Source of the DNA: Pocillopora verrucosa
Lineage: Eukaryota
Direction: 5' to 3'
Length of the DNA: 64,000 bases
NCBI RefSeq assembly: GCF_036669915.1
Contig: NC_089320.1
Span: 15,979,874-16,043,873 of the forward strand
A model generated the notes under the pieces. That model saw nothing but the letters and a program-made list of their open reading frames with translations. It was not told the origin of the DNA and ran no database searches. The first letter of the stretch is position 1. Each line of letters opens with the position of its first letter. Shown here piece by piece: positions 42,944 through 64,000 of the stretch. The translations under genes and the position numbers were made by a program.

Positions 42944-43624
42944 ATGGCGGGCAGTCTAACACGAGAGGTGATAACTCTCCAATTTGGTCATTACTCCAAC
43001 TTTGTCGGTACTCACTGGTGGAATATTCAAGAATCTAGCTTCTGCTATGACCCTAGTTCTTCATTTCAACAAGAAATTAACCACGATGTGTTGTTTAGGG
43101 AAGGTTTAACTTTACAGGGCGACCAAACTTACACTCCAAGGTTGTTGGTGTTCGATTTGAAAGGAAGTCTAAAAAATCTACCAAAATATGGAACTTTGTA
43201 TCAGACTCCATCTGACGGCCACGAAACCTTGTGGGAAGGGGCAGTTTCTGTACATGAATCAGAACCAGAACCTAAAAATGAATTTCAAATGGACTTAGAA
43301 GCGGTACTGGAGTCTGAGAACGATCGCGAAACAGAAGTTTCTGTTGACAATAGAACGCTTGATCAGGATCCTGTCGATAAAAACCCAAGAGAAAAGTATT
43401 ATGACCTGGATAAAAATGTCTCTGTGTGGTCAGACTTCTTAGGAACCTGCTTGCATCCGAAATCAATTCAGCTTGTGCGGGATTACCTGCATGGTGGAAG
43501 CACTAGTCCATTTGATGTGTTTGGATACGGACAGTCTGTAGCCAAAGATGAACACTTTTATGATGAGTTTGAAAGCAATCTTCATTTCTTTGTCGAGGAA
43601 TGTGACAGTCTACAGGGATTCCAG
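42944..43624 (+). CDS. MSTO1: MSTO1 (misato, tubulin/FtsZ-like) exon 1: MAGSLTREVITLQFGHYSNFVGTHWWNIQE...ECDSLQGFQ
   Basis: The ORF begins like human [28 protein letters not shown] and ends ..HFYVEECDYLQGFQ. Donor CAG|gttaga. Confidence 0.9.
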
Positions 43625-44217
43625 GTTAGAATTATACCGCTTGGAAAAATGAATTTGTGGTGAGGTCCATAGAGTGTCTGGAAGCTATCAGACCAAAGTT
43701 TTGATCATTTCGCCATTTTGTTCACTTAGTGATTTTGTAAGTTGAGAGAGGTAGTTGTCTGTTTTCAAGTGATTCTTAACGCCTTATGGATTGTAATCCA
43801 GGTCTGTTTAACCTTAATCTGGGTCCTTGCTTCTCAGTGAGGAACAGAATTGATAATAGGAAAACAATCTACTGCCCATTTTCCCTCCCCCTAATATTTT
43901 CTTGCTTTTTTCAATTCCTTCCTTCTACCTCTCCCAACCCCTGCCCCCCTTGACCAGTGATCCGGCCTAATTGCACTTAGGAGCCTGGTGCTTGTCTAGC
44001 TTTTTGTGTGCTTAACTTTCATCTGTTATTAGTTCAGAAAACCTGTGCTACATATGCAATCAATTAGATATAAACTAATCATAGCTCAGCCATTCACACT
44101 TTCCTGTGCCTGAGGCCATCGATGTGTCTGTAGTTTAAGTTTTCTTTGGCTTCATGTGATATTTTCCTATGTTCTGATTGAGCATAGTGAAAACTATAGT
44201 GTTAGTTTTGCACTGCT

Positions 44218-44850: not shown

Positions 44851-45615
44851 CCTGCTTTGTCATACCACACCAGTGCAGTGTTGGGAGCATGTGTGGACAC
44901 AATCACTATGCCTTACCGGCTCCTCACACCTCAGGCAGTCAACATGAACAGCTTTGTAAATAGTGTGGCATTTGGAGAGAGAAAGATTGCCAGCCTCTCG
45001 TTGACTTTCCCTTTACCCATAGAAGATGCTATTCCTTTGTCGTCCCTTCTAGGCTCTACACTGAGTAGAAATGGAACAGAACTTTTTCAGTCAGTAACTC
45101 CTGGTATTTCACATTCTTCCTCTCTTATATCTCAGTCTTCAGTCATAAGAGGCATCCCTGCTTCTTTCACCCATACACCTCAACAAAACATCCAGTCCCA
45201 GAATTCTGTGTTGCATGAGAACCCATTTGAAGTTTGCACAACTGCTAGTGAAATGGTTCAAACATTTCTGCAAAATTTACACCCTCAGACTCAACCTGTG
45301 TGTTGGAATGTCAATCAAACTTGTATGGTCAAGCCTCCTTTTCCAAATATTTTCGGCTCAAGAGTAACCAATGATGGACTTGTTGTTGATGGATATACAA
45401 GACCAGAGAGTGTACGAGTGAGTCAGACAAGTGTTCTTAGTCGTCTCGAGACAAATTCCGGCATCGCTAGTATGCTTCTGTCATTGATTCAGTGGGCAAA
45501 AAGAGTAAATATCAGTAAGCATCATTTGTTTTTGGAATCAGGTACTGAAGAAGAAACATTTAAAGAAATGCTTGAAGATTTGACTAGTTTGTCTCAGCGT
45601 TACGTGAACCCGTGA
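44851..45615 (+). CDS. MSTO1: MSTO1 exon 3: PALSYHTSAVLGACVDTITMPYRLL...SLSQRYVNP*
   Basis: tttcccag| acceptor. Matches human ..[22 protein letters not shown].. Stop TGA at 45613-45615. The three exons total 574 aa, against 570 aa in human. Confidence 0.9.
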   Translation, partial: PALSYHTSAVLGACVDTITMPYRLLTPQAVNMNSFVNSVAFGERKIASLSLTFPLPIEDAIPLSSLLGSTLSRNGTELFQSVTPGISHSSSLISQSSVIRGIPASFTHTPQQNIQSQNSVLHENPFEVCTTASEMVQTFLQNLHPQTQPVCWNVNQTCMVKPPFPNIFGSRVTNDGLVVDGYTRPESVRVSQTSVLSRLETNSGIASMLLSLIQWAKRVNISKHHLFLESGTEEETFKEMLEDLTSLSQRYVNP

Positions 45616-49403: not shown

Positions 49404-49642
49404 CTTAAAACAAATTAAATGTTGACTATCCTAAGGAAACCAGTTTTTTCATTTTCCACTAAGTTTCAATACAAAAAAAAATCACTGTTAATTAAGAAAT
49501 AAGTAATTATGTAAAATGCAATGCACACACAATATACTTTCTGAACCATAAACAATGAAGTAAGAAAAGAGAAGATTTGATATCGGTAGGAGTTTTGTCA
49601 ACCATTTATTACCGCGCTCAAAATAACAGCCTAAACATCTTA

Positions 49643-51029
49643 CCTCTTGGGTGACATGGACGGCGACTTTCTTTCCCCTCGTTTCCTATCACGAGAATCT
49701 TCTCGAGGAGAAGCCGAACGTTTCCGATCCCGAGCATCCTCGCGAGGCGAGTTCGACCTTGATCGTTTTCTTCCCTCTCCTTTTCCTCGAATTGCGTCCC
49801 TTGGAGGAGACTTGACGGGAGACTCTCGAGTCTCACGCGTCTTTTTCTTAGCCGATGACGGCTCAGGGGAAGCAGACGAAGAAGATGATCGTTTATCTTG
49901 ACGAGCTTTTAACTTCTTCGCTGAATCAGGTTCGGCCTGTGGCTTCTGTGGTGACACTGGCGAGCCTGAAGAAGACCGAGACCTCTCCGAGCGCTTTCGT
50001 CTCCGACCAGCTACTTTCTCTGGTTCTGGAGAGCGGCGACGCTCTTTTTGATCTTGTTCGTCGGCACGACGACGACCCGATGGTTGTGGCGATTCTGACC
50101 GACGAGTTACAGGAGGTGACGAACTTGACCGAAGGCGTCTTCGCAGTGGCGGGGACGGTATTCTTTCCTTTCTACGCTCTCTACTTCGTGGCGGCGATGG
50201 CTCAGGTCGTCGTCGCCTTTCCCTGGGAGATGGTGATTGCGAATGTTCTGCTTTTCTCCTCCTTCGAGGAGAAGAAGAACGTCTCTCTTGGCGCCGTCTT
50301 CGGGGAGAAGGCGAACGGGAAAACTCTCTTCTTTTTCGTCTGGGTGGGGAAGGCGAGCGTGAATCGTCTCTCCTTCTTCGTCTGGAGGAAAGTGACTCAT
50401 CTCGGGGCTTTCTTCGCCGATCCCTTGGTGACTCACTTCGTTCTCGTTCCTTTCTCCGATCTTTAGAGGAGTCAGCTTTCTTCTTCCTCTCTGGCGACCA
50501 CTCCCCTTCAGACGAGGATGGTGACGGCGAGTGTTTGCGGTAGCGGCGGCTTGTCGTTTTCTTGGATTTTGGTAAAGGCGGCGACTTCTCTTTCTCTTCC
50601 GTGACTTCTTTCTCTTGTTTGATCTGAGGGGGTGGTGGCGAGGCAGAGGATGACGAGGACGGGGAAGGCTGTTTGACCGGTGAATGAGGCTGTTCCTGCT
50701 TTTTGTAGGATGATCGATGATGCGTCGGTGGAGGGCTGGGAGTACCCTTTGATTTCGCTTTTTCCGGACTGGCCGACTTTTCCTTTGATTTAACTTTATT
50801 GTCTTCTTGCTGTTCTTCTTTTTCCTTCTCAACCTCCTTTTCCTTTTCTTTACCCTTTTCCATTTTCTCTGTTCGTGTTGTGTCGGCTCGAGGTGATTTT
50901 GAGCGTGAGCGTGACGATCGTGAGCTGAAACTTGCAGAACGTGACCGTGATGACGCTGACGCTGAGCGTGATCGGCGGCGAGGAGATGGAGATCGACGTG
51001 GCTTCCTGCGCGGTGAACGAGAGCGAGAC
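49643..51029 (-). CDS. SRRM1: SRRM1 giant RS/Pro-rich exon (~460 aa: SRSRSPRRKPRRSPSPRRRSRS...RSASPREDSRDRKRGERKSPSMSPKR)
   Basis: This is the 491-aa ORF 49640-51115, trimmed to tgtttctag| at the 5' end and AG|gtaaga at the 3' end. Coordinates are about +/-1 nt here. Confidence 0.85.
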
Positions 51030-51581
51030 CTAGAAACAATAATGCTTAGTTCGTTACACAATGATCCCCTTGGATATTTCAGAATTTGAGTTAGTTCAGA
51101 CCCTTCCGCGTGCAATGGGACTTCTTAAAAAACAAAACAAAACAGCGACAACAAAAGACAGCTGTTAGAGTAGACTCAGTGCAAGAGTCTACCTCGTGAA
51201 CCATATTCAAGCTCTCTTTATTCGCGTTCCATCCGAAGCTGAAATGATATCATCCAAGAGGCTCGAGTTCTTTTCTAATACATAATCGTTATCTTTGAGG
51301 AAATAAAGTTAATTCCACAGTACGAAGCGCTTATCTGTCGAATGACTTTAATACAACGAAAACTGGAATAAAATACCAAAACCAAACCGGGAAAAGATAA
51401 ATACAAAGGAACCAATTGATTCAAAGTTAAATCTCAACGGCCTCAAGTGTTCGAGATGCAGTAAGTATTATTTGCGCAGTCGATTAGAAGAGAGACTTGC
51501 ACGAATTCTCTTAACCAATCAAAGAGAGCGGTAAAGAAACTGCTCTAAATGTGATCAAAATCGAACTTAACTATCATGTAC

Positions 51582-51920
51582 CTTCTACGTGGTGGTGATC
51601 TTCCCCTTCTAGGTGGCGACCACCTCCTTGGGGAAGGCGTTCTACGGCGTCTGCGAGGTGACCATCGACCTCTGTTGTACGAAGAAACACGACGGGGCGA
51701 GCGAGAACGAGACCTTCTCCGCCTTTCCCGACTGCGTGATCGTGATCTTGAGTACGACCGGGAACGTGACCGAGAAGCTGAGGACTTGGACCGACTACGC
51801 TTACGTCCTTTCTTGTCTCTTGACCGTGTTCTGTCTCTTCTGTCTCTTGAGCGAGAACGTGAACGTGATCGAGAGCGTGATCCTGAACGTGACCGCGAAC
51901 GTGAACTAGAGTTTCCTCTT
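51582..51920 (-). CDS. SRRM1: SRRM1 RS-domain exon: ..SSSRSRSRSGSRSRSRSRSRSRDRRDRTRSRDKKGRKRSRSKSSASRSRSRSYSRSRSRSRERRRRSRSRSPRRVSSYNRGRWSPRRRRRTPSPRRWSPPRRGRSPPRRR
   Basis: ttttcag| acceptor, AG|gtacat donor. The end phase (2 nt) joins exactly to the next exon, giving R+SRSRSP.. Confidence 0.8.
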
Positions 51921-54300
51921 CTGAAAATTTCATAAACGATAGACATCAAAGGTTGAACCCTGAATATTTGAATTTCTAAATCTGTAAACCTTGTTCACCT
52001 TATCGTCGCCTATATCATCGCTTCTCATTCCTTTTCTTTTTTTCAGACACTTTTAACATTTACTTGAGTTATATCTTAACAAAGTATCCTTCCTGAGTTT
52101 CTTTTCCTGTTTATCTGTCTTCTTCATTGAGATGTAAATTTGCCGTGGAATATGATGCGTCGGTGGGAGAGTATAACAGGGTAATTTTGTATTAACAACT
52201 GAGTTGATAACGTAAATTGGCCACTGTAAGGACGCTCTGACGAAGAGTTAACGCTCGAAACGTTGGCTTAGCCCTCTTTACGGTGGCCAATTTACGTTAT
52301 TACCTCAGCTGATAATACTAAATTGCCCAATAATGAAAAACATAATTAATAAAACTTGTTAGTAAGTTATACAACTTACTTCATATCTTTGTTTTCAGCA
52401 GCCTCTGCAGAAGCAAAACAAACAAGATAATGACAAGTTTTAAGAAATAGTAAAGGAAACAAATCAAGCCAACATATCCTTTTGGGGACATTTGTGTTAT
52501 GAAGAAACAGTTTTTTATTAATTTTTGCTGAAATCATTATTATCATAATAATCAATATTAGTAATCTCATAATAACTACATCATCATCATTTGGAAGTCA
52601 GTGACTCCGGCGTCCAAGAATTTGCGTATTTGCGCACATGTTACTCAAAGGGGCTTGTCTGAAGGGACAGAAACAAAGATGAAAAAAAAAGAGTTTTGTG
52701 GTCTTTCATCTTCTGTGACGAGGAGTATTCAAGCAGACAAAACCTTATTAGGCCTGCTTCACCTGCAGAGAGGCAATTTCTTTATCTACGACTGTTCAGA
52801 GCAAAAATTTCAATTTGCACTACGACTAGAAATGGTACTCAAAATTGCTGAACTTTAACGCTACTAAAAGTTTAGAATGTAGTTTAAGAAACACTGTTAT
52901 AATGTCATAACTTGCACCTACCTTTCTTGGCCTTTTCAGCTCTTTCAATTTCATTTTGCTGTGGAGAGTAACAGAGAGAGAAAAGAAAATTCACTTTGGG
53001 CCTGATATATTTTCTTTTCCTGGAGAGTTTTGATGGTTTTAATGGTTGATGCATAATGGGAAAAACCATAGATTACTTAATATAGAGAACAGAAACAGTT
53101 TTAATTTTGCTCAGTGGACACAGCAGCCAGATGCCACTTCTTTTCTAGATTGTAACTACCTGTTAAACTGCTTTTCCATGAGCACTGGCCCATTACATTT
53201 CACTGTCAATTGAAAAGTTTAAAAAAAAACATTTTTCATATCTAAATGCATCGTGTTGATACAATAGAGAGACAAAACAAAAATAATGCTACCTCAAATA
53301 AAAAAATCAAAACCTCTCTGACATGTACATGAAAAAAATGCCGAATTAAATACACAACCAGTACATATTTTCTCATTTAAGTAAAATTAAGATGAAGGAA
53401 AAAGATAAAAATATTTAGAAACAACTAGCAACACAAGCACATATTTAGCTAAATACTTTTCTGACATCCTCTATCCTTTTACCTTGCTCTTCCCTTCCCA
53501 ATCTACCCCTCCCCAAACTCTTTTTTTGTTACAGTGCAAAGGTAAACGTGGGTGGAAAGAACAAGAGATCGAATGCAGAGGTTAAGAGAAGTATTTCTTC
53601 ACATTTACAGTAAAAACACAACTTATTTTCTTTTATAAACAGGCTTTAGGTTCAAGCTAACTGGTGTTTGTATAAATATTCTATGGTTTTAACAACCCCA
53701 AATCAGACTCATCTTTGACACAGAAATGATGGTGAACATCTAAGGCAAAGTAACTTAGCATGGAGAGTGAACACACCACCAGTTTTGTGATGGGGTAAAT
53801 TTTCTTAGGCAAGCTGATTTTCACAATCATTTGTTGCTGCATGACTAAATCACAATCCCAACCATACTTAGTCATGCAATTTATTGCTTGATTCGACATC
53901 TCTGAAACGATATGAAAATCTCCTGCAAAAAGGGGTCCACCTTTACATGCAAGTACAAGTAACAATAGAAGTGAGACATGGCATTTGTAGACCTTTAGCA
54001 CATGTGAATTAATTTTACAGTGTAGAATCGGGATAACAGTACTTTAACATGTATATCACTCTTTGAGTGAATTTTACAGAAAGCATGGGTCTTCCTTGAA
54101 GAATCAGTTATAATGATAACAACATGTTAGTACATGATAATCTAAACAATAATGATGAGAGGAAGAAAAGGTGTTATGTAAGGTTGGAAAAAAGAGTGTT
54201 AATGCAAGTATTATCACATCAGAGGGACTATTGCAAAAGATTTTTGACTTTGTGGCATGGCTAGATGACTGTGTTGTTTTCTTAGACAAGCAACTAAGCC

Positions 54301-55352
54301 TCAGTGCCTCTCTTCACTTGAGACTGTGAAGGATGTCAAAAAACTGTTGGGGAAAACTTGATGTACTGCTTGAGTTGTATGGAATGGATTAGGACCATAT
54401 CCAAGGGGAGTGGCAATACAAATGAAGATATATACCTTAATGAGCTTTTTGTTAGGAACAGAACTGTCTCCTTCTGTATCATCAGATTTAAGAAGCTCTT
54501 TCACCAAACGTGTGATTGATTTGGCAAGCTTCTCGTCTCCTTCCTCTACAAGATGTAAGTGATCTTTAAAGTAGAGATTTTTGTCAAGTTCACCTCCTCT
54601 GACAGTCCAGCCCTTCTCTGGTGGTAAGAAATACACATTCTCATTCTGCAGCTCTTCTGAATAGCTTATATACTGAAACAGTTCCTCATTGACATCATCA
54701 ACCTTGTTGCGCCTTGAGCTGGGGTATAAATCCCTGGGAAGGATTCCACACACAATGATGTTCACATTGGGCTTTTTGTTCCGAATGAAGTCAACAATGG
54801 CCAATATACCTTGGGCAATTTCACTTGAACTGTTTTTGTCTATGTTGTTGGTGCCACAAAGTACAACAATTATTTTAGGGTCACACTCAAGTTCCCCATT
54901 CTGGAGTCGCCAAAGAACATGCTGAGTTTTGTCACCACCAATACCAAAGTTCAGTGCTTTCAGCGGGGCAAAGTACTTTCTCCAGATTTTTGGATAACGA
55001 CTCAATCCTTTGATGATAGAGTCCCCGGTCAAGACAACATTGATGTCAGGGGTTGCTGCGAGGGCAACATTCTGCTGATGCTCTTTATCCCATCCAGGTT
55101 TATCTCTGTCAACTGGCTGGGCAGCTGAGGACATGAGCCGAGACCTCCATTTTGGTTGGAGGAGTTTACTGGGTGACTTCACCTCTGCATCTTTTTCCTT
55201 TTTCACTTCCACAACTGATGTAAGGTCAGACGTATCTACTCTTGTGTCTGACCCACTCTTTTTCCTGGAGGCCCTCTCATCATCACTCTCACCACTGTCA
55301 GAATGAGCAGAGTCTTGCCTGGACTTCTTGTACTCTCTTTTTGGGTTGTTCT
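54301..55352 (-). CDS. PAF-acetylhydrolase IB catalytic-subunit-like SGNH/GDSL hydrolase: ..VVLTGDSIIKGL..FAPLKALNFGIGGDKTQHVLWRLQNGELE..IIVVLCGTNNI..DHLHLVEEGDEKLAKSITRLVKELL..; a 5' mini-exon probably lies near 55545-55566 (MASFIHS..), and the 3' end may splice at AAG|gtatat near 54436
   Basis: The 368-aa ORF aligns with human PAFAH1B2 (FSPLHALNFGIGGDGTQHVLWRLENGELE; catalytic GDS, GxND and DxxH blocks). tttcaacacag| at about 55352. A poly(A) signal lies about 415 nt downstream (plus-strand tttatt at 53883). Confidence 0.75.
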
Positions 55353-57374
55353 GTGTTGAAATAAATAACATAATTTGTAACTCTAACACAAAAAATCTCA
55401 ATTTCAAAGTTAGCTTACCTTAGTAAAGTTTGTAAAATAAAAAGTAAATAGAAAATGAAATAGCAACATAGAAATTCAAATAACCAAAACTTATCCATGA
55501 CAACTTATATTATAATATTCTTACCTGAAGATACTTAAATAGAGTATTTCTAGTCTGCTGTGAATAAAAGAAGCCATGCTCAACTTCAACCACAAAGCCA
55601 GCACATTGCAGTTACAATTTCATCTCGCAGGACATGTTCATGAGACAAATTGCCTGATACATTGCTAAGTTGTCTTTATATTGAATAGGTCACTTTAAGC
55701 TACAATGTATTGGGAGTATTTGGAGCCTAATAACTAGTCTGAATGTGAATGCTGACAGGTATAAGTACTTTTTTCATTCATCCCAATGGAGAAGTTTGTC
55801 ACAAACGAATGCTGAATTAGGTGTATTACTGAGTATAGCCTAGCTTACAATCATGATCTCTGTAGCTCACTTAGAACATCTAACAATGATATAAAAACTG
55901 GCTGAAATTCTTTTACATCTTGAGGAACTACTAATTTTTTTCCCAGTGCTTGTTCAGAATATAAACATCCTCCTTTAATGCACCTTGAACTACATACAAA
56001 TGGACTGGGTTACATCTCAAACTATAGAACACATACACACCAAAGTAATAGTGCATATGTAGCTCTTTACATCAGGGCAAAAATCAAATATTACTGAAGT
56101 AGATGCAGAAGCAGCTCACTTATGTTTCTACCTTAAGAGGCATTAGCCAGCCACCAATGTCCAGCAAGAGTAACATACACTACACTTGGAGAGAAATGCT
56201 ATTCTAAGAAACATTTCTTTTCATTCAGAGGATGTGTTAAACCTCTCCAGAAGACCTCTTTCCATGAATTTAATTGAGAATCTCTCTTTTGAAGTATCCC
56301 TGTTCAGGAGACAACTCTCTTGGTCCTGAGAGTGGTAGTGCTGTATCATTGTTGTATATTGAGCTTGTGTTGTCAACTTCCATTTCAAACTCTTACAATA
56401 TGTTCTGATTGCAACTTCACCTTCCTCTATCTCACAACCAGGCACTTCCAACATTGTAGATCCTTGAAGCATGCATTGCATATGGCCTTGTTCACCGACA
56501 AGTTCTTCCAAACTTAGTTGAAGTAATCATGTGTAAAATTGGCAGTGGCTGGGGTTAGAATCAACCAGTGGAAAACAGATTTTTATTTTTCCCATAATGG
56601 TGACAAATATGAAACATCTTTCTTGATTTTATTATTATGATCAGTTGTTCATTCCAGGGAAGATGTTGTTTACAATTAGAGAAATTCATTTCATGAAGCA
56701 CCTACTCAGAAATGCATTTTCCTGACATTTCTGACAAACACCAGTGTACAAAAAGTGTTACCTAACATGAGTGAATGCATAATTTTCTATAGCATACAAG
56801 TTATACCCATTTTTATCAATTTTGTTCCTTTTTATTCTTATTATTATTACTATTTTTAACAAAGCCTTTTCTATTCAAAGATGATGTGGTCTGTCACAAT
56901 ATTTGGAATTACTTTTGTGACCTACCACCCTTAACTTGTCAGAGACAATAATGCTAGTTAATTAAACTAAGAAAATGAAAAAAAAAAAAAAAAAGGCAAT
57001 TGTAAAAATTGATAGAAACAAGGACAGTTAAAGGTGGAGATGGTTAAAAAATGAACTTGAAAGATAATAGCTACATTTTCAAGAGGCTCAAATAGTAACA
57101 CAGTGACTAGACCAGAACATGTTAGTCGCACTGGTGCCAGCATCAGTTGCAATCTCAAGCCCTGCTTACAATCTCAATTTTTCTAACCACCTTGGTTCAT
57201 CAAGAACAGGGTATAGAATGTGTGAAACCTGTGAACACATGTAATATGATTACCTGACGTGTCAATCTACTGCATCTGAACAATGAGAGCCTCCACAAGA
57301 TTCTTCCAATTCTTGTTAACAGTTCTCTATCACTATGGTTAATCAATTGTAAAAAGAAATTAAGAAATGCTCAC

Positions 57375-57560
57375 TTCTTTCCCTGCTAGTTGCTCTGCCA
57401 GTTCTTTAGCTTTCCGAAATTCCTCTGTAATGTCAGCAGATGCAGGTGCAGATCCATTTTCATTGCCTACATTATCATCTGTTGCTGTGCTGTCTGGCTC
57501 TGTTTGCTGCTGATCTCCTTGATATCTCTGAAGGTTAGCTTGGATACGCTCTTGTTCCAG
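57375..57560 (-). CDS. SRRM1: SRRM1 exon 5: LEQERIQANLQRYQGDQQQTEPDSTATDDNVGNENGSAPASADITEEFRKAKELAEQLAGKE
   Basis: cttgatag| acceptor, GAA|gtgagc donor, 186 nt, phase 0. Position matches the post-PWI linker. Confidence 0.7.
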
Positions 57561-58693: not shown

Positions 58694-58864
58694 CTTTCTT
58701 TGCTTGATTTCCTCTTTCTTTTTTTCCATAAATTCAGAAGGAATACCACCAATATTTTCTTGTGCACTTAAAAGAAGAGTCCATAACTCCTTCATAAATT
58801 CACGGGCATTTTTGGATTGCAAAAAGCCAGTAATATTTATTTGCATGAACTTTGGATCTGGACT
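58694..58864 (-). CDS. SRRM1: SRRM1 exon 4 (PWI domain part 2): SPDPKFMQINITGFLQSKNAREFMKELWTLLLSAQENIGGIPSEFMEKKKEEIKQRK
   Basis: Near-identical to human KMMQINLTGFLNGKNAREFMGELWPLLLSAQENIAGIPSAFLELKKEEIKQRQ. tttcag| acceptor, AAG|gtttga donor. Confidence 0.95.
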
Positions 58865-59361: not shown

Positions 59362-59487
59362 CTTTTCTGATTCTAGCATGTTAAAGACATACTGCATAAC
59401 CACATCATCTTCAGCTCCAAGTATATCAATCAACTTCTTTGTTATCCAAGGTTTTATTATATCAAGGTTGACCTTTTCCATGTCCAC
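59362..59487 (-). CDS. SRRM1: SRRM1 exon 3 (PWI domain part 1): VDMEKVNLDIIKPWITKKLIDILGAEDDVVMQYVFNMLESEK
   Basis: Matches human VDMSKVNLEVIKPWITKRVTEILGFEDDVVIEFIFNQLE. gtgtcag| acceptor, AAG|gtgaaa donor. Confidence 0.95.
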
Positions 59488-60470: not shown

Positions 60471-60560
60471 CTTTTTGTTGAGAACGTCGTCAAATCGCAT
60501 TGATTTCAACAACTTCTTTTGCTTGTCAAGAAATCGATTGTCCTGTTCTGCACTCGTACC
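60471..60560 (-). CDS. SRRM1: SRRM1 exon 2: GTSAEQDNRFLDKQKKLLKSMRFDDVLNKK
   Basis: tctacag| acceptor, AAG|gtaagc donor. Matches human GTSAEQDNRFSNKQKKLLKQLKFAECLEKK. Confidence 0.9.
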
Positions 60561-60652: not shown

Positions 60653-60676
60653 CCGAAAGAAACCAGCGTCCGCCAT
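60653..60676 (-). CDS. SRRM1: SRRM1 (SRm160) exon 1: MADAGFFR; ATG at 60674-60676
   Basis: Human SRRM1 starts MDAGFFRGTSAEQDNRF. Donor CGG|gtgagc. The start codon is embedded in AAGATGGCGGACG. Confidence 0.85.
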
Positions 60677-60800: not shown

Positions 60801-61787
60801 GAGAGACTTGAGTTGGAAGAGCGGTTAGCGAGCCATTCCGCTTATTTCAATTCCCTGATCGAGTTGATACCAGTGAAATATTACCTACCTATTGATGAAG
60901 AAGAGAAAGCAAACAAGTTTTATAAAAATCGTTCGAGGAAAGCACCTAAACAGACTATTAAAGAGGCATCAAGGAAAGCCAAACGTGCAAGACTCGATCC
61001 GAACCAGCATAAAACAATTCAAGAAATACAAAAAGAGGCTGAGGGAAATGCTTCCACCGGAAATCAAATTGATCTAAACGATGAAGAAAAAATAGAGAGT
61101 CCTAACTTTAGTGTCGAAAGGGTGGAAAGCAAAAGTCTGGAGGACCTAAGATCTCGCCTGCATGCGAGAATAGAAGGCTTGCAAAGAAAACGTAACGCAG
61201 GAAGTGGGAGGCCAGATGGCTTACAACAACCACGTGCGAAGAAATCGAAGAAAGAAGTAAAAGAAAAAAATAAGCAGAAATTGGCTGCTACCTTTAAGGA
61301 ATCGAAAGGAAGTAGACAAAACGATTCTTTACCCAGCCAGAAAATATTAAACGAAAGTGGAGATGTTGTTTTTAGTAAATTTGATTTCTTGGAAGCTAAG
61401 AAAGAACCAAGACCTGGGATGAAAAAGAAAAATTACGAAAAACTGCTCGCTAAAGCTGAAGCTCGAAAGAAAAAGCTGGAATCTTTGAGAAAAGAGGATT
61501 TGTCGAAAGCTAAAGAATTAATGGATAAACTTTCTTGGAGTCAGGCGATTGAAAAAGCTGAGGGTATAAAACAACACGATGACCCTAAACTTTTAAAGAA
61601 GGCGATGAAAAAAAGAGATAAGGCGAAAACAAAAAGTAAAAAGCAGTGGGAAGAACGGATTGGTTATCAAAAGAAAATGGCAGAGGAGAAACAAAAACAA
61701 AGACGAAAAAACATTAAAGAAAGGATTGAAGCCAAGAAAGGAAAAAAATCTGGCAAAGGAAAGAAAAAGCACAGACCAGGATTCTAG
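60789..61787 (+). CDS. SURF6: SURF6/RRP14-family nucleolar protein, single exon, 332 aa: MADVERLELEERLASHSAYFNSLIE...HDDPKLLKKAMKKRDKAKTKSKKQWEERIGYQKKMAEEKQKQRRKNIKERIEAKKGKKSGKGKKKHRPGF*
   Basis: The basic coiled-coil C-terminus has the SURF6-domain pattern DDPxLLKKxxKxxxKxKxKSxKxWxER...QKKRxxNIKxR. This is recalled from memory, not searched. The ATG at 60789 is preferred over the ORF-track start at 60645, whose N-terminus is antisense to SRRM1 exon 1. Confidence 0.6.
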   Translation: MADVERLELEERLASHSAYFNSLIELIPVKYYLPIDEEEKANKFYKNRSRKAPKQTIKEASRKAKRARLDPNQHKTIQEIQKEAEGNASTGNQIDLNDEEKIESPNFSVERVESKSLEDLRSRLHARIEGLQRKRNAGSGRPDGLQQPRAKKSKKEVKEKNKQKLAATFKESKGSRQNDSLPSQKILNESGDVVFSKFDFLEAKKEPRPGMKKKNYEKLLAKAEARKKKLESLRKEDLSKAKELMDKLSWSQAIEKAEGIKQHDDPKLLKKAMKKRDKAKTKSKKQWEERIGYQKKMAEEKQKQRRKNIKERIEAKKGKKSGKGKKKHRPGF

Positions 61788-64000
61788 TGGTTATGATGAA
61801 ATATTTTTGAGACCAACACAGCAATAACAAGCAATTTAAAGAATAGTAGATAAGTGAACTTGACCCTTCAAGGCATAACGTTTGAAATTTTCACGACTAG
61901 GATTCAGTACCAAAGGGTGTACACGAGAACAAGGACAAGCTCAGGGCAAGTCTAACCTGAGGGTCTCCTCAAAGCATGATAAACAAGGAAAGTCATTGTC
62001 CTCTTTGTACTAAGACTTGTGATTCATTCTCTGGATTAGAGCTGTCTACTTGAAGAAGTATTACATGTCCAAGAAACTTATCTTCATTTATAAAACTAAG
62101 AACCAAATTTGTGCAGTGCTCACGAGGTCTTCCTTCAAAGTAGGAAAAAGGAGATAAGAAAAATGTGAAAAATGTGATGCAGTGACAAGTGTCCTTACAT
62201 CCATAATGAGCCATTAACATTCAAAAGGTCTGGTCTTATCTTTTCCCTTTTTAGTTCTATTAAATTATGACATATAAAGAAAGAAAGCTCAGATTTTTCA
62301 TAAGGTGTAAGGAATCTAGGCTTGAGCTGGCTCTCTTCCCTCTTTCTTTTTTTGAGTCTAAATTACAAATTTAACAACAAATAAAATATAGTTTCTTGTG
62401 AAGAGATGTTTACTCTCTCCTTTTTTTTTAATTACAATAGTATTTTACAAATAATTTAAAGGGTACTTGAGTACTATTTTGAACAGTTCTGTACAGTGCT
62501 CTCCCTTATGACTTGTTTATGTAAGTAAATCATGTCAACCTTCCAGCCCTTTAAAAATGCCAAGTGGAAAAGATAACCCCTTTATCCCCTAACATCAGTA
62601 TACATATTCTCCATACTGTTCTCCATACATTTCCAAAGGGGCTGACAAGGAAAATTTGTATAGCAGTCGAGAGCTGCTCTAGTTGGTGATCATCTCTTCT
62701 ACTCTCATTACTTTCATGTTTGGTTCAGGGGTGATATACTTAGGAGAAATAAGATGCTAGTCACTCTTAGGGACTTAAGGGTTAAAGTCAGACGGTGAAC
62801 ATTATAAACCTTTCCTGGCTTAAGCCTGTGTATTGGGTGAAATGTTCTCCCTTACAAATCTGATTGGGTCATTTCTTAGATACACAAGCCTGTATTTTAT
62901 AATGAAATGTAAAATGAAAACCCACATTTACAAAAAAATAATTTTGTGCACCTGGCTTCAATGTGAAAGTGAAAATTTTTGGGAACTGAAAAAGGCTTCT
63001 AGAAACCCCTGGTATATGCATGAAGAGCATGTTTTGAATAGAGAATTTCTTTAGCTGGGCTGACAAGGAATCACTTGAATGGGCTGCTCATTTGCTTTCA
63101 TAAGGTATTGTCTCTATGCATGCTGACTTGATGTCATGAATTGTTAAAAGGAAATAAGTTAAACAAGAACTTTCATCAGGTGTGGGAAGATTATATTTCT
63201 AGGGCAGTCATGGCTGTTAAATCAAGGCTCCTTTTTCTAGTCAGGAAGAAGGTCATCTCCAATTTCTTCATCACCAAATTCATCCTCAACTTGCTGTGGC
63301 CTTTGCCTGCCAGCAGTCTTTGGCCTTGCTGGAGCTTCTCCAAGAGGATCTGCATAAGTGGCATCTACAAACCAGGATGTTTAAACAGTTAATTATTGGA
63401 AAGAAGATACTTTGTGAACTAGGTAACTCAAAACTTCATAACCTACTACCAAGCATTCCTTTAAATCAGTGCATAATTCAAGGAAGGGTACCTAACATTT
63501 CCCAAAGAGTTTCACCTACATGCACTACCTGGGTTAGGCCTTTAACTCTAGATGTCTGATTGGTAATTCTCTCTTCAATCTGTTATGTGCTCTCAGTAAA
63601 TAAGCTAAGAAGTTTTGTTGTTACACCAATGTAGGACTATCTTACTGATAAAATTGTCTGATCAAATCATCAGTTCACCTATTTTAGATTATGACCAAGG
63701 AGTCTGAGTCAACTAGATAAAATTATTCACTGAAGTAGAGGTGAACAATTGTGGATATTTACAGTGTGTGCCTAGCCTCAAAATAGTGACTGAAGAGAGT
63801 AATATGTTTTTTAGTCATACAAATAGATGGAGTGTCTCCAAAGCTACCAACTAAACTAAATTTATACTTAAAAACTGTGGTATTAAAAACCTGACCCAAG
63901 GAATAATTCTCTACCAACTCACCAACTTCTTTTGATCCACTAAAACTAAATGAGTCATCATTATCTGGAATGAATGGTTTTGTTCGTCCAGCAGAGCGGT

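Follow-up and report, generated by a model that had tools for sequence, protein, structure and literature searches.

A 64,000-nucleotide (nt) stretch of the genome of the coral Pocillopora verrucosa (RefSeq assembly GCF_036669915.1, contig NC_089320.1), which we refer to as the window, contains on its minus strand the gene for the splicing coactivator SRRM1 (SRm160) and, between the exons for the N-terminal PWI domain and those for the RS domain of this protein, an open reading frame (ORF) for an SGNH hydrolase of the PAFAH1B type. An earlier note on this DNA had taken the ORF for an independent gene nested in the same orientation inside an SRRM1 intron, while allowing for an alternative chimeric transcript. 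Our analysis indicates that the hydrolase ORF is very probably no nested gene but one of the internal coding exons of SRRM1 itself, with the reading frame preserved across it. We base this reading on the phase of the exon (0-0 on the SRRM1 frame), the lack of a start and a stop codon of its own, gene models in Montipora, the conserved position of the exon within SRRM1, selection on its sequence, and the conservation of its catalytic residues. SRRM1, known to associate with the spliceosome and the exon junction complex (EJC), is regarded as a non-enzymatic scaffold in which a PWI domain and RS repeats bridge splicing factors; with an intact esterase conserved inside it, this core splicing protein would have a novel architecture.

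The hydrolase ORF and its place in SRRM1

The minus-strand ORF comprises 368 codons (54301-55407), and its product contains the blocks GDSI, NFGIGGDKTQHVLWRLQNGELE, GTNN, and DHLHL. That these blocks belong to a real hydrolase, as the earlier note had stated, is borne out by a match to Pfam Lipase_GDSL_2 (PF13472; E=4.6e-16, 60.3 bits vs. a cut-off of 32.9) and by a search of PDB sequences in which PAFAH1B2 (1fxw_F/1vyh) was the best solved structure, with E=5e-38 over the whole domain. The domain does lie in a single exon, but this exon extends from 55350 to 54436 rather than from 55352 to 54301 because its 3′ end is a splice donor. Specifically, the acceptor reads atttcaacacag/AACAAC (the slash marks the exon border here and below) with the first exon base at 55350, and the donor reads ATTAAG/gtatat with the last exon base at 54436. 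In more than 20 related genomic ORFs, conservation stops exactly at this acceptor (..LQ/) and at this donor (..IK/V). The exon has neither an ATG at its start nor a stop codon; an in-frame Met first appears at codon 73 (position 55134), and this residue is not conserved, being Leu in about half of the orthologs. The folded part comprises ~220 amino acids (aa; exon codons ~76-295 in an AlphaFold model) and not ~270 aa as first proposed. Similarly, the Ser/Asp/Glu-rich N-terminal extension of ~100 aa is present as a linker predicted to be disordered, but this linker is ~70-75 aa long and rich in Ser/Lys/Asp. Between taxa, its length varies from about 75 to about 220 aa.

We rebuilt the 5′ exons of SRRM1 by tblastn with the Montipora protein and by reading of splice sites. 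Of all start codons, the ATG of exon 1 alone has been shown to share its reading frame with the hydrolase exon, and exons 1-5 are all phase 0-0. The two SRRM1 exons between which the ORF had originally been placed (57560-57375 and 51920-51582) were confirmed and share its strand, and their conceptual product has a PWI domain; the former is the immediate upstream neighbor as described, but two micro-exons, A and B, had been missed before the latter. Given these micro-exons, the host intron spans 57374-52959, and the hydrolase exon lies ~2 kb and ~1.5 kb from the neighboring SRRM1 exons. Because the exon is 915 nt long and in phase 0-0, and because exon 5 ends and exon A starts in phase 0, inclusion and skipping are both expected to read into the RS domain. 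Whether the hydrolase exon is kept or left out in conceptual splicing, the part made of exons A, B, and 51920-51582 reads ..KRGNSSSRSRSRSGSRSRS.., and both products stay open into the RS domain (..KRGNSSSRSRSRSGSRS..). In the conceptual product of exons 1-5, a PWI domain (PF01480) was matched at residues 47-117 with E=1.7e-29; in the conceptual inclusion product, the PWI match (E=1.7e-29) is followed by Lipase_GDSL_2 (E=1.5e-15), and the conceptual skipping junction, ..LAGKE/QNEIERAEKAKK.., is that of canonical SRRM1.

In a protein search, many genomic ORF calls were 66-91% identical to the hydrolase exon, stemming from prokaryote-style callers applied to coral DNA in metagenomes, and an ORF on a Tara Pacific metagenome scaffold (L001) was 99% identical. 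One of the matches is an annotated eukaryotic protein, XP_068755231.1 (P0011) of Montipora capricornis, which has both a PWI and a GDSL domain; it has a cluster-mate, XP_068755230.1 (P0215), and both models are named 'uncharacterized protein'. The two models run from SRRM1 exons 1-5 through the hydrolase exon to exon A(/B) and the start of the RS domain, and it is this joining of PWI exons, hydrolase exon, and RS exons that favors the chimeric transcript mentioned as an aside in the earlier note. The isoforms differ at exons A and B: X1 has an extended exon A and no exon B, while X2 uses both. In both, only the inclusion chain is present. The Montipora locus (L002) likewise has a hydrolase exon of 915 nt (ctctag/AGC .. 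AAG/gtactt), together with a 186-nt exon 5 and both exon A and exon B. Outside exons, the DNA of the window shows no similarity to that of Montipora. Montipora also carries a second, tandem partial copy of SRRM1 (L002:31306-33726 vs. L002:12702-15056, 95% nucleotide identity including introns), which is annotated as a 1288-aa product beginning in exon 3.

Orthologs of the same single-exon structure at an unlinked locus would, as the earlier note had reasoned, mark the ORF as an ordinary gene. The opposite was found: the exon lies inside SRRM1 in all seven of the other clade loci examined, and the orthologous SRRM1 genes of Nematostella, Montipora, L003, L004, L008, and L009 all contain it. The order SURF6(-), SRRM1 PWI exons, SGNH exon, RS exons is reported for these six, each locus having PWI exons upstream and/or RS exons downstream on the same strand, with the exon between both wherever both gene ends were fetched; the opposite-strand SURF6 neighbor was seen in Montipora, Nematostella, and L004. 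In Nematostella vectensis (L006; DS469818.1), an opposite-strand SURF6 is accompanied by SRRM1 exons 2-5, a 1272-nt SGNH exon (ttgttacag/CAC .. AAG/gtatta), and downstream RS-domain ORFs, and exon 5 ends in phase 0 (GCG/gtaagt). L004 has SURF6, PWI exons, and an SGNH exon of 1218 nt; L003 has one of 855 nt with SRRM1 RS exons 4-5 kb downstream; and in L008 and L009 exons 1-5 are followed by SGNH exons of 1014 and 888 nt, respectively, the acceptor AG of the latter lying within an in-frame TAG. As for a cassette exon, all six lengths, with the 915 nt of Montipora, are multiples of 3, as is the 915-nt, phase 0-0 exon of the window. The donor reads AAG/GTA in every locus, i.e. in the window and the six others. 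Nematostella and scleractinians split roughly half a billion years ago.

Two observations concern related exons. The linkers of exons that group with that of Nematostella (P0027, P0028, P0029, P0030) have a motif like KEARAKRFG, DRAKRFA, or DRARRFS, which we take to resemble the RAxRFG repeats of SARNP/Tho1-type mRNA-export adaptors; the linkers of L004 and P0121 have RKRRF(Q/R)E, and the scleractinian linker in the window is without the KEARAKRFG-like motif. Moreover, the sample from which L004 stems contains a paralog of the SRRM1-embedded exon at another locus (L005:10007-12292, P0121; relatives P0122 and P0123). This paralog forms a terminal exon that ends in a stop codon (..EEGSSD, then stop); it has the acceptor ttgcag/TCG and no PWI nearby, as well as a disordered S/K/R-rich stretch of ~560 aa ahead of the SGNH domain.

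Selection, catalytic residues, and predicted fold

The hydrolase domain is under purifying selection. In the comparison of the window with Montipora, the nonsynonymous and synonymous divergences (dN/dS) were 0.123/1.56 (about 0.08) for the SGNH domain, 0.18/1.78 (about 0.10) for the whole hydrolase exon, about 0.10 for the linker, and 0.066/1.81 (about 0.04) for SRRM1 exons 2-5, dS being saturated in this comparison and the ratios rough. In an alignment of 51 sequences, G109, G136, N168, and N169 are invariant, and D110, S111, D263, and H266 are at least 90% conserved; the Ser, Gly, Asn, and Asp..His of blocks I, II, III, and V of the SGNH superfamily are all present in the hydrolase exon. A pseudogene is ruled out by the dN/dS values and the intact catalytic residues. 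We note that one sequence (L009:10001-10738, P0018) has GNS instead of GDS in block I and GISGD in block II and keeps the Ser, the Asn, and DxxH, representing a lineage-specific change beside the nucleophile.

An AlphaFold model of the hydrolase exon was built on the 51-sequence alignment. The predicted local distance difference test score (pLDDT) is <50 for residues 6-66 and >90 over ~75-295. In Foldseek, the domain superposed on the α subunits of PAF-AH Ib: the target-normalized template modeling (TM) score was 0.93 for 1fxw_F and 3dt6 and 0.92 for 3dt8 and 1wab, with root-mean-square deviations of 1.4-1.6 Å, and many SGNH structures were matched with a probability of 1.00; the predicted structure has the flavodoxin-like α/β/α fold. 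Because the domain has the full Ser-Gly-Asn-Asp-His set and a PAFAH1B-like fold, we lean toward its being an active short-acyl (acetyl-type) esterase. By analogy, its substrate could be an acetyl ester, as for PAF-AH Ib, or the domain could bind acidic phospholipids, as does the ORF1p esterase of ZfL2-1.

The features of the locus are collected in Table 1. The SURF6-like ORF is divergent from SRRM1 exon 1 at a distance of ~240 bp, and this head-to-head pair is kept in Montipora, Nematostella, and L004. A scan of the window (1-64000) with Rfam gave no family at gathering score and, in particular, no intronic snoRNAs in SRRM1. Two long plus-strand ORFs in the window (42944-43663 and 44857-45615) may belong to a gene of the misato (MSTO1) type, which we take them to resemble.

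Table 1 Features of the SRRM1 locus in the window; positions count from the first letter of the window
Feature	Position	Strand	Basis or remark
SURF6/RRP14-like gene, synteny anchor	60918..61835	+	Reading-frame match; Pfam-annotated counterparts elsewhere
SRRM1 exon 1, start codon (MADAGFFR)	60653..60676	-	tblastn and splice sites
SRRM1 exon 2	60471..60560	-	tblastn and splice sites
SRRM1 exon 3, PWI domain first half	59362..59487	-	tblastn, splice sites, PWI profile match
SRRM1 exon 4, PWI domain second half	58694..58864	-	tblastn, splice sites, PWI profile match
SRRM1 exon 5 (LEQERIQANLQRY..LAGKE), ends phase 0	57375..57560	-	83% identity to Montipora P0011 residues 138-201
Host intron, upstream part, 2024 nt	55351..57374	-	No collinear conserved block vs. 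Montipora intron
Proposed SGNH-hydrolase exon of SRRM1	54436..55350	-	915 nt, 305 codons, phase 0-0
Linker, ~75 codons, Ser/Lys/Asp/Arg/Glu-rich (..SRQDSAHSDSGESDDERASRKK..)	55126..55350	-	Composition; predicted disordered
Folded SGNH domain, PAFAH1B type, ~220 aa, exon codons ~76-295	54466..55125	-	AlphaFold, Foldseek
Predicted catalytic Ser111, block I GDS	55018..55020	-	At least 90% conserved, 51-sequence alignment
Predicted oxyanion-hole Gly136, block II NFGIGGD	54943..54945	-	Invariant in alignment
Predicted oxyanion-hole Asn168, block III GTNN	54847..54849	-	Invariant in alignment
Predicted catalytic Asp263 and His266, block V DHLH	54553..54564	-	At least 90% conserved
Intronic run-on of ORF past donor, 45 codons (VYIFICIATPLGYG..ERH, then stop), outside exon	54301..54435	-	Tail unrelated between species
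SRRM1 micro-exon A (QNEIERAEKAKK+G), 37 nt, phase 0 to 1	52922..52958	-	Also in P0011; joined by hydrolase-exon donor
SRRM1 micro-exon B (EAAENKDM), 25 nt, phase 1 to 2	52380..52404	-	Matches EAAVEKEV in P0011 and L002:23165
SRRM1 first RS-domain exon	51582..51920	-	ORF, conceptual splicing, DNA conservation
ORF with large SRRM1 RS-domain exon, 491 codons, conserved motif KSPPLPKSKKTTSRRYRK	49640..51115	-	Homologous ORFs in L003 and Nematostella L006

Use of the exon and alternative explanations

Our working model is that transcription starts from the SRRM1 promoter, which would be shared head-to-head with SURF6 at ~60.7 kb, and that exon 5 (ending at 57375 in phase 0) is joined to the acceptor at 55350 and the donor at 54436 to micro-exon A, which starts at 52958 in phase 0. 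With the exon included, the protein would be composed of the PWI domain, a flexible acidic/Ser-rich linker, a PAFAH1B-type SGNH esterase, and the RS domain, and skipping would yield canonical SRRM1. The PWI and RS domains would bring the esterase to spliceosomal or nuclear-speckle ribonucleoproteins (RNPs), a presumably nuclear location. Whether the exon is alternative rather than constitutive stands at roughly even odds; its frame-neutral design, the conserved suboptimal donor, and the occurrence of SRRM1 without the domain elsewhere are what suggests alternative use.

Several observations weigh against reading the ORF as an SRRM1 exon. In none of the seven species does the donor have a G at +5, and few internal exons reach such a length, so that usage could be low or conditional. 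On the transcript level, support comes solely from an automated NCBI model for a single species, and this model ends at 547/548 aa since the first RS exon is frameshifted in the assembly (L002 ~23700), which may reflect either faulty assembly or a genuine absence of the RS domain from this copy. No full PWI-SGNH-RS protein is annotated among the records examined, and the 2007 annotation of Nematostella split the two parts into separate proteins. A word-indexed protein search recovered no second PWI+SGNH protein, and an exhaustive comparison of the Montipora fusion with 1.84 billion representative proteins gave no other PWI+SGNH combination, the matches in multiple stretches being tandem SGNH repeats. 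Finally, the sequence would also be compatible with an internal promoter or with use as an alternative last exon. When JGI metagenome contigs were searched for spliced junctions with a degenerate exon-A pattern, one AT-rich chance match was the only result. A full-text literature search found no paper on SRRM1 with an SGNH domain or on a PWI with GDSL architecture.

As an alternative last exon, the ORF would use the acceptor at 55350 but not the donor, run to the stop at 54301, and be polyadenylated, giving a truncated PWI-SGNH protein without an RS domain; this mode, which may coexist with the cassette mode, we consider unlikely. It would account for the 45 codons by which the ORF continues beyond the donor to a stop and for the suboptimal donor (GTATAT, no G at +5), and the proteins of the Montipora models likewise have no RS domain at their end, although the cause there is the frameshift. 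However, the run-on tail is unrelated between species while the AAG/GTA donor is conserved in every locus, neither AATAAA nor ATTAAA occurs between the stop of the hydrolase ORF and 53885, where the first AATAAA lies ~415 nt beyond the stop at 54301, and the Montipora models use the donor and go on to exon A (X2 also to exon B).

The independent same-strand gene of the earlier note would be transcribed separately from its own promoter and have a 5′ ATG exon and its own 3′ end. The distances of 2 kb and 1.5 kb to the neighboring SRRM1 exons would suit such a gene; in addition, the Nematostella annotation of 2007 lists the hydrolase on its own, as a 'predicted protein, partial', and the paralog outside SRRM1 (P0121-P0123, L005) indicates that the module can work in another gene context. 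The gene structure required does not materialize, however. The ATG exon proposed for it (MASFIHS.., 55525..55577, minus strand, 53 nt, phase 2) is out of frame and, when spliced to 55350, yields only 56 codons before a stop; no in-frame Met is conserved; and no stop precedes the donor that is conserved in seven taxa. Comparison of the upstream part of the host intron with the Montipora intron by blastn-short and tblastx revealed no collinear conserved block or coding exon, although the same tblastx detected the 37-nt exon A downstream (E=0.01 vs. Montipora) as a positive control. Moreover, the phase fits SRRM1 on both sides, the Montipora models use the 5′ exons of SRRM1 itself, and the run-on tail that would form the 3′ end is not conserved and has its first AATAAA only at 53885. 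We consider an independent nested gene highly improbable. A relic of a CR1-like retrotransposon ORF1 in the intron, i.e. a fossil or an occasional exonization without host function, is hardly credible: outside the SRRM1-locus clade, CR1-like ORF1 esterases (e.g. P0134 in L007) come closest to the exon, the SRRM1 clade and the transposable element (TE) group are split from PAFAH1B and microbial-like proteins with 100% bootstrap, and the domain is intronless like a TE ORF, yet it is single copy without similarity to reverse transcriptase (RT) or endonuclease in the window, it has an orthologous position in Nematostella and corals with conserved splice sites, its dN/dS is about 0.08, and the monophyletic TE group (100%) does not have the SRRM1 sequences nested inside it. 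We therefore reject a TE relic as an account of the present-day function, while it may account for the origin. A recent TE insertion was likewise considered and is ruled out by the absence of RT/endonuclease similarity and the single copy in the window.

Reading the ORF as an in-frame exon of SRRM1 has practical and conceptual consequences. Such an exon is readily taken for a gene of its own, as it was when Nematostella was annotated in 2007, and prokaryote-style ORF callers report it with intronic run-on at both ends. If the reading is true, an enzyme is built into a core splicing coactivator, where it might carry out, e.g., deacylation or acidic-phospholipid binding at nuclear speckles, and this would give concrete access to the question of whether RNPs of the spliceosome or of speckles are subject to small-acyl or lipid chemistry. 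More speculatively, we entertain the broader possibility that sea anemones and stony corals make an SRRM1 isoform with a catalytically competent esterase, that this isoform, taken together with the single-exon union of the same SGNH subfamily and an RS domain in another lineage (L010) and with its attachment to the Arg-rich ORF1p of CR1-like retrotransposons, reflects an unrecognized esterase-RNP partnership, and that the SRRM1 exon lineage is a host-side relative (source or sink) of the retrotransposon esterase; taken as a whole, this proposal is tentative and we regard it as somewhat doubtful.

Relatives of the exon and comparison with known systems

We computed neighbor-joining (NJ) trees of the domain with bootstrap, in which PAFAH1B was represented by vertebrate sequences. 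Vertebrate PAFAH1B2/3 grouped with microbial-like SGNH proteins and were split off from all other sequences with 100% bootstrap. The remainder consisted of the SRRM1-locus sequences and a monophyletic group (100%) containing retrotransposon proteins; the SRRM1-locus sequences are not nested in this TE group, and their own monophyly has only 49% support. In the trimmed alignment, the window domain is 50-83% identical to the SRRM1-locus clade, 41-49% to TE-group esterases, and 38-41% to PAFAH1B. CR1-like ORF1 esterases are the closest relatives outside the SRRM1-locus clade, with 45-51% identity in the word-indexed search. Among these, P0134 (L007) is an ORF1 with an SGNH domain and a PHD-like finger that is directly followed by Exo_endo_phos and RVT_1 ORFs, an architecture that matches the esterase/PHD ORF1 of CR1-like non-LTR retrotransposons as attributed in PMC3905857 to Kapitonov & Jurka 2003. 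Searching the window with the endonuclease and RT ORFs of L007 (tblastn) gave no matches, and the window contains only one SGNH copy. The sequences support a shared ancestry of the SRRM1 exons and the TE esterases that postdates their separation from PAFAH1B. Any TE origin would be ancient, and the transfer may have gone either from host to TE or from TE to host. The retrogene origin with later gain of a 5′ exon that had been suggested for the ORF is not supported in this form and finds a partial echo in that the nearest non-SRRM1 relatives are intronless TE ORF1 esterases, although the SRRM1 clade is not nested among them.

The window domain does not qualify as an ortholog of PAFAH1B2/3, given the 38-41% identity and the separate clade at 100% bootstrap in an NJ tree with vertebrate PAFAH1B. 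When coelacanth PAFAH1B2 (P0109) was used as a query for cnidarian PAFAH1B, the best 120 matches were all vertebrate or unassigned with at least 63% identity to this query. In another lineage, an SGNH domain and an RS domain occur together in one uninterrupted exon (L010:442-1599, L011:499-1653, L012:86-1240) on metagenome scaffolds, with the bounds ttttag/TTG ... RTPPRRR/gtaaaa; the identity of this SGNH domain to the window exon is 43-47%. Downstream of the SGNH-RS exon lies a K/R/S/E-rich ORF of 600 codons, and all three contigs end just upstream of the exon. These sequences group with CR1-like ORF1 esterases (NJ, 85% bootstrap) and not with the SRRM1 clade, and we suggest that they provide an independent precedent for an esterase joined to an RS domain.

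SRRM1 and SGNH esterases of the PAFAH1B/CR1 type are both known kinds of protein; what appears to be new, judging from the sequences, is their in-frame combination, conserved in Nematostella, two stony corals, and L003, L004, L008, and L009. With other SRRM1 proteins, the coral gene shares the N-terminal PWI domain, in a region that is ~70% identical to the named SRRM1 of tick and fish, and the long RS-rich C-terminal exons, and its predicted exon-skipped product is canonical SRRM1. It differs in the 305-codon esterase exon between the PWI and RS regions, and in both protein searches no hydrolase was found in SRRM1 proteins outside the Montipora cluster. With the PAF-AH Ib subunits PAFAH1B2/PAFAH1B3 (1wab, 1fxw, 1vyh), the coral esterase shares the GDS / G / N / DxxH set and the N-terminal W..H helix before block I. 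Whereas these are free proteins of ~230 aa that dimerize, bind LIS1, and hydrolyze the sn-2 acetyl group of PAF, the coral esterase is one internal exon, without start or stop, inside another gene.

Why an SGNH esterase is present in many ORF1 proteins of non-LTR retrotransposons has long been puzzling (PMC3905857). The structure of one of them, the ORF1p esterase of ZfL2-1, has been solved, and the protein hydrolyzes the para-nitrophenyl (pNP) esters pNP-acetate and pNP-butyrate and binds phosphatidic acid (PA) and phosphatidylinositol phosphates (PIPs) (PMC3905857); its chain was absent from the PDB sequence matches of the hydrolase exon at E<=0.001. Like the CR1-like ORF1p esterase, the coral domain is intronless and attached to an Arg-rich RNA-associated polypeptide, which is an Arg-rich motif (ARM) there (PMC3905857) and the RS domain here. 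Unlike the CR1-like ORF1, with its esterase, PHD-like finger, and ORF2 endonuclease/RT, the coral exon has no PHD finger, ORF2, or multiple copies in the window, and it occupies a fixed orthologous position with splice sites. The coral exon would thus be a single-copy host homolog of the ORF1 esterases in an RNA-processing protein, one that is genetically tractable in Nematostella. The OSK domain of Oskar offers a further parallel, in that an SGNH-like fold resides in a germ-plasm RNP organizer and hence likewise within a protein of RNP biology (PMC3905857); the OSK domain has lost the catalytic residues (PMC3905857), whereas all of them are conserved in the coral SRRM1 exon.

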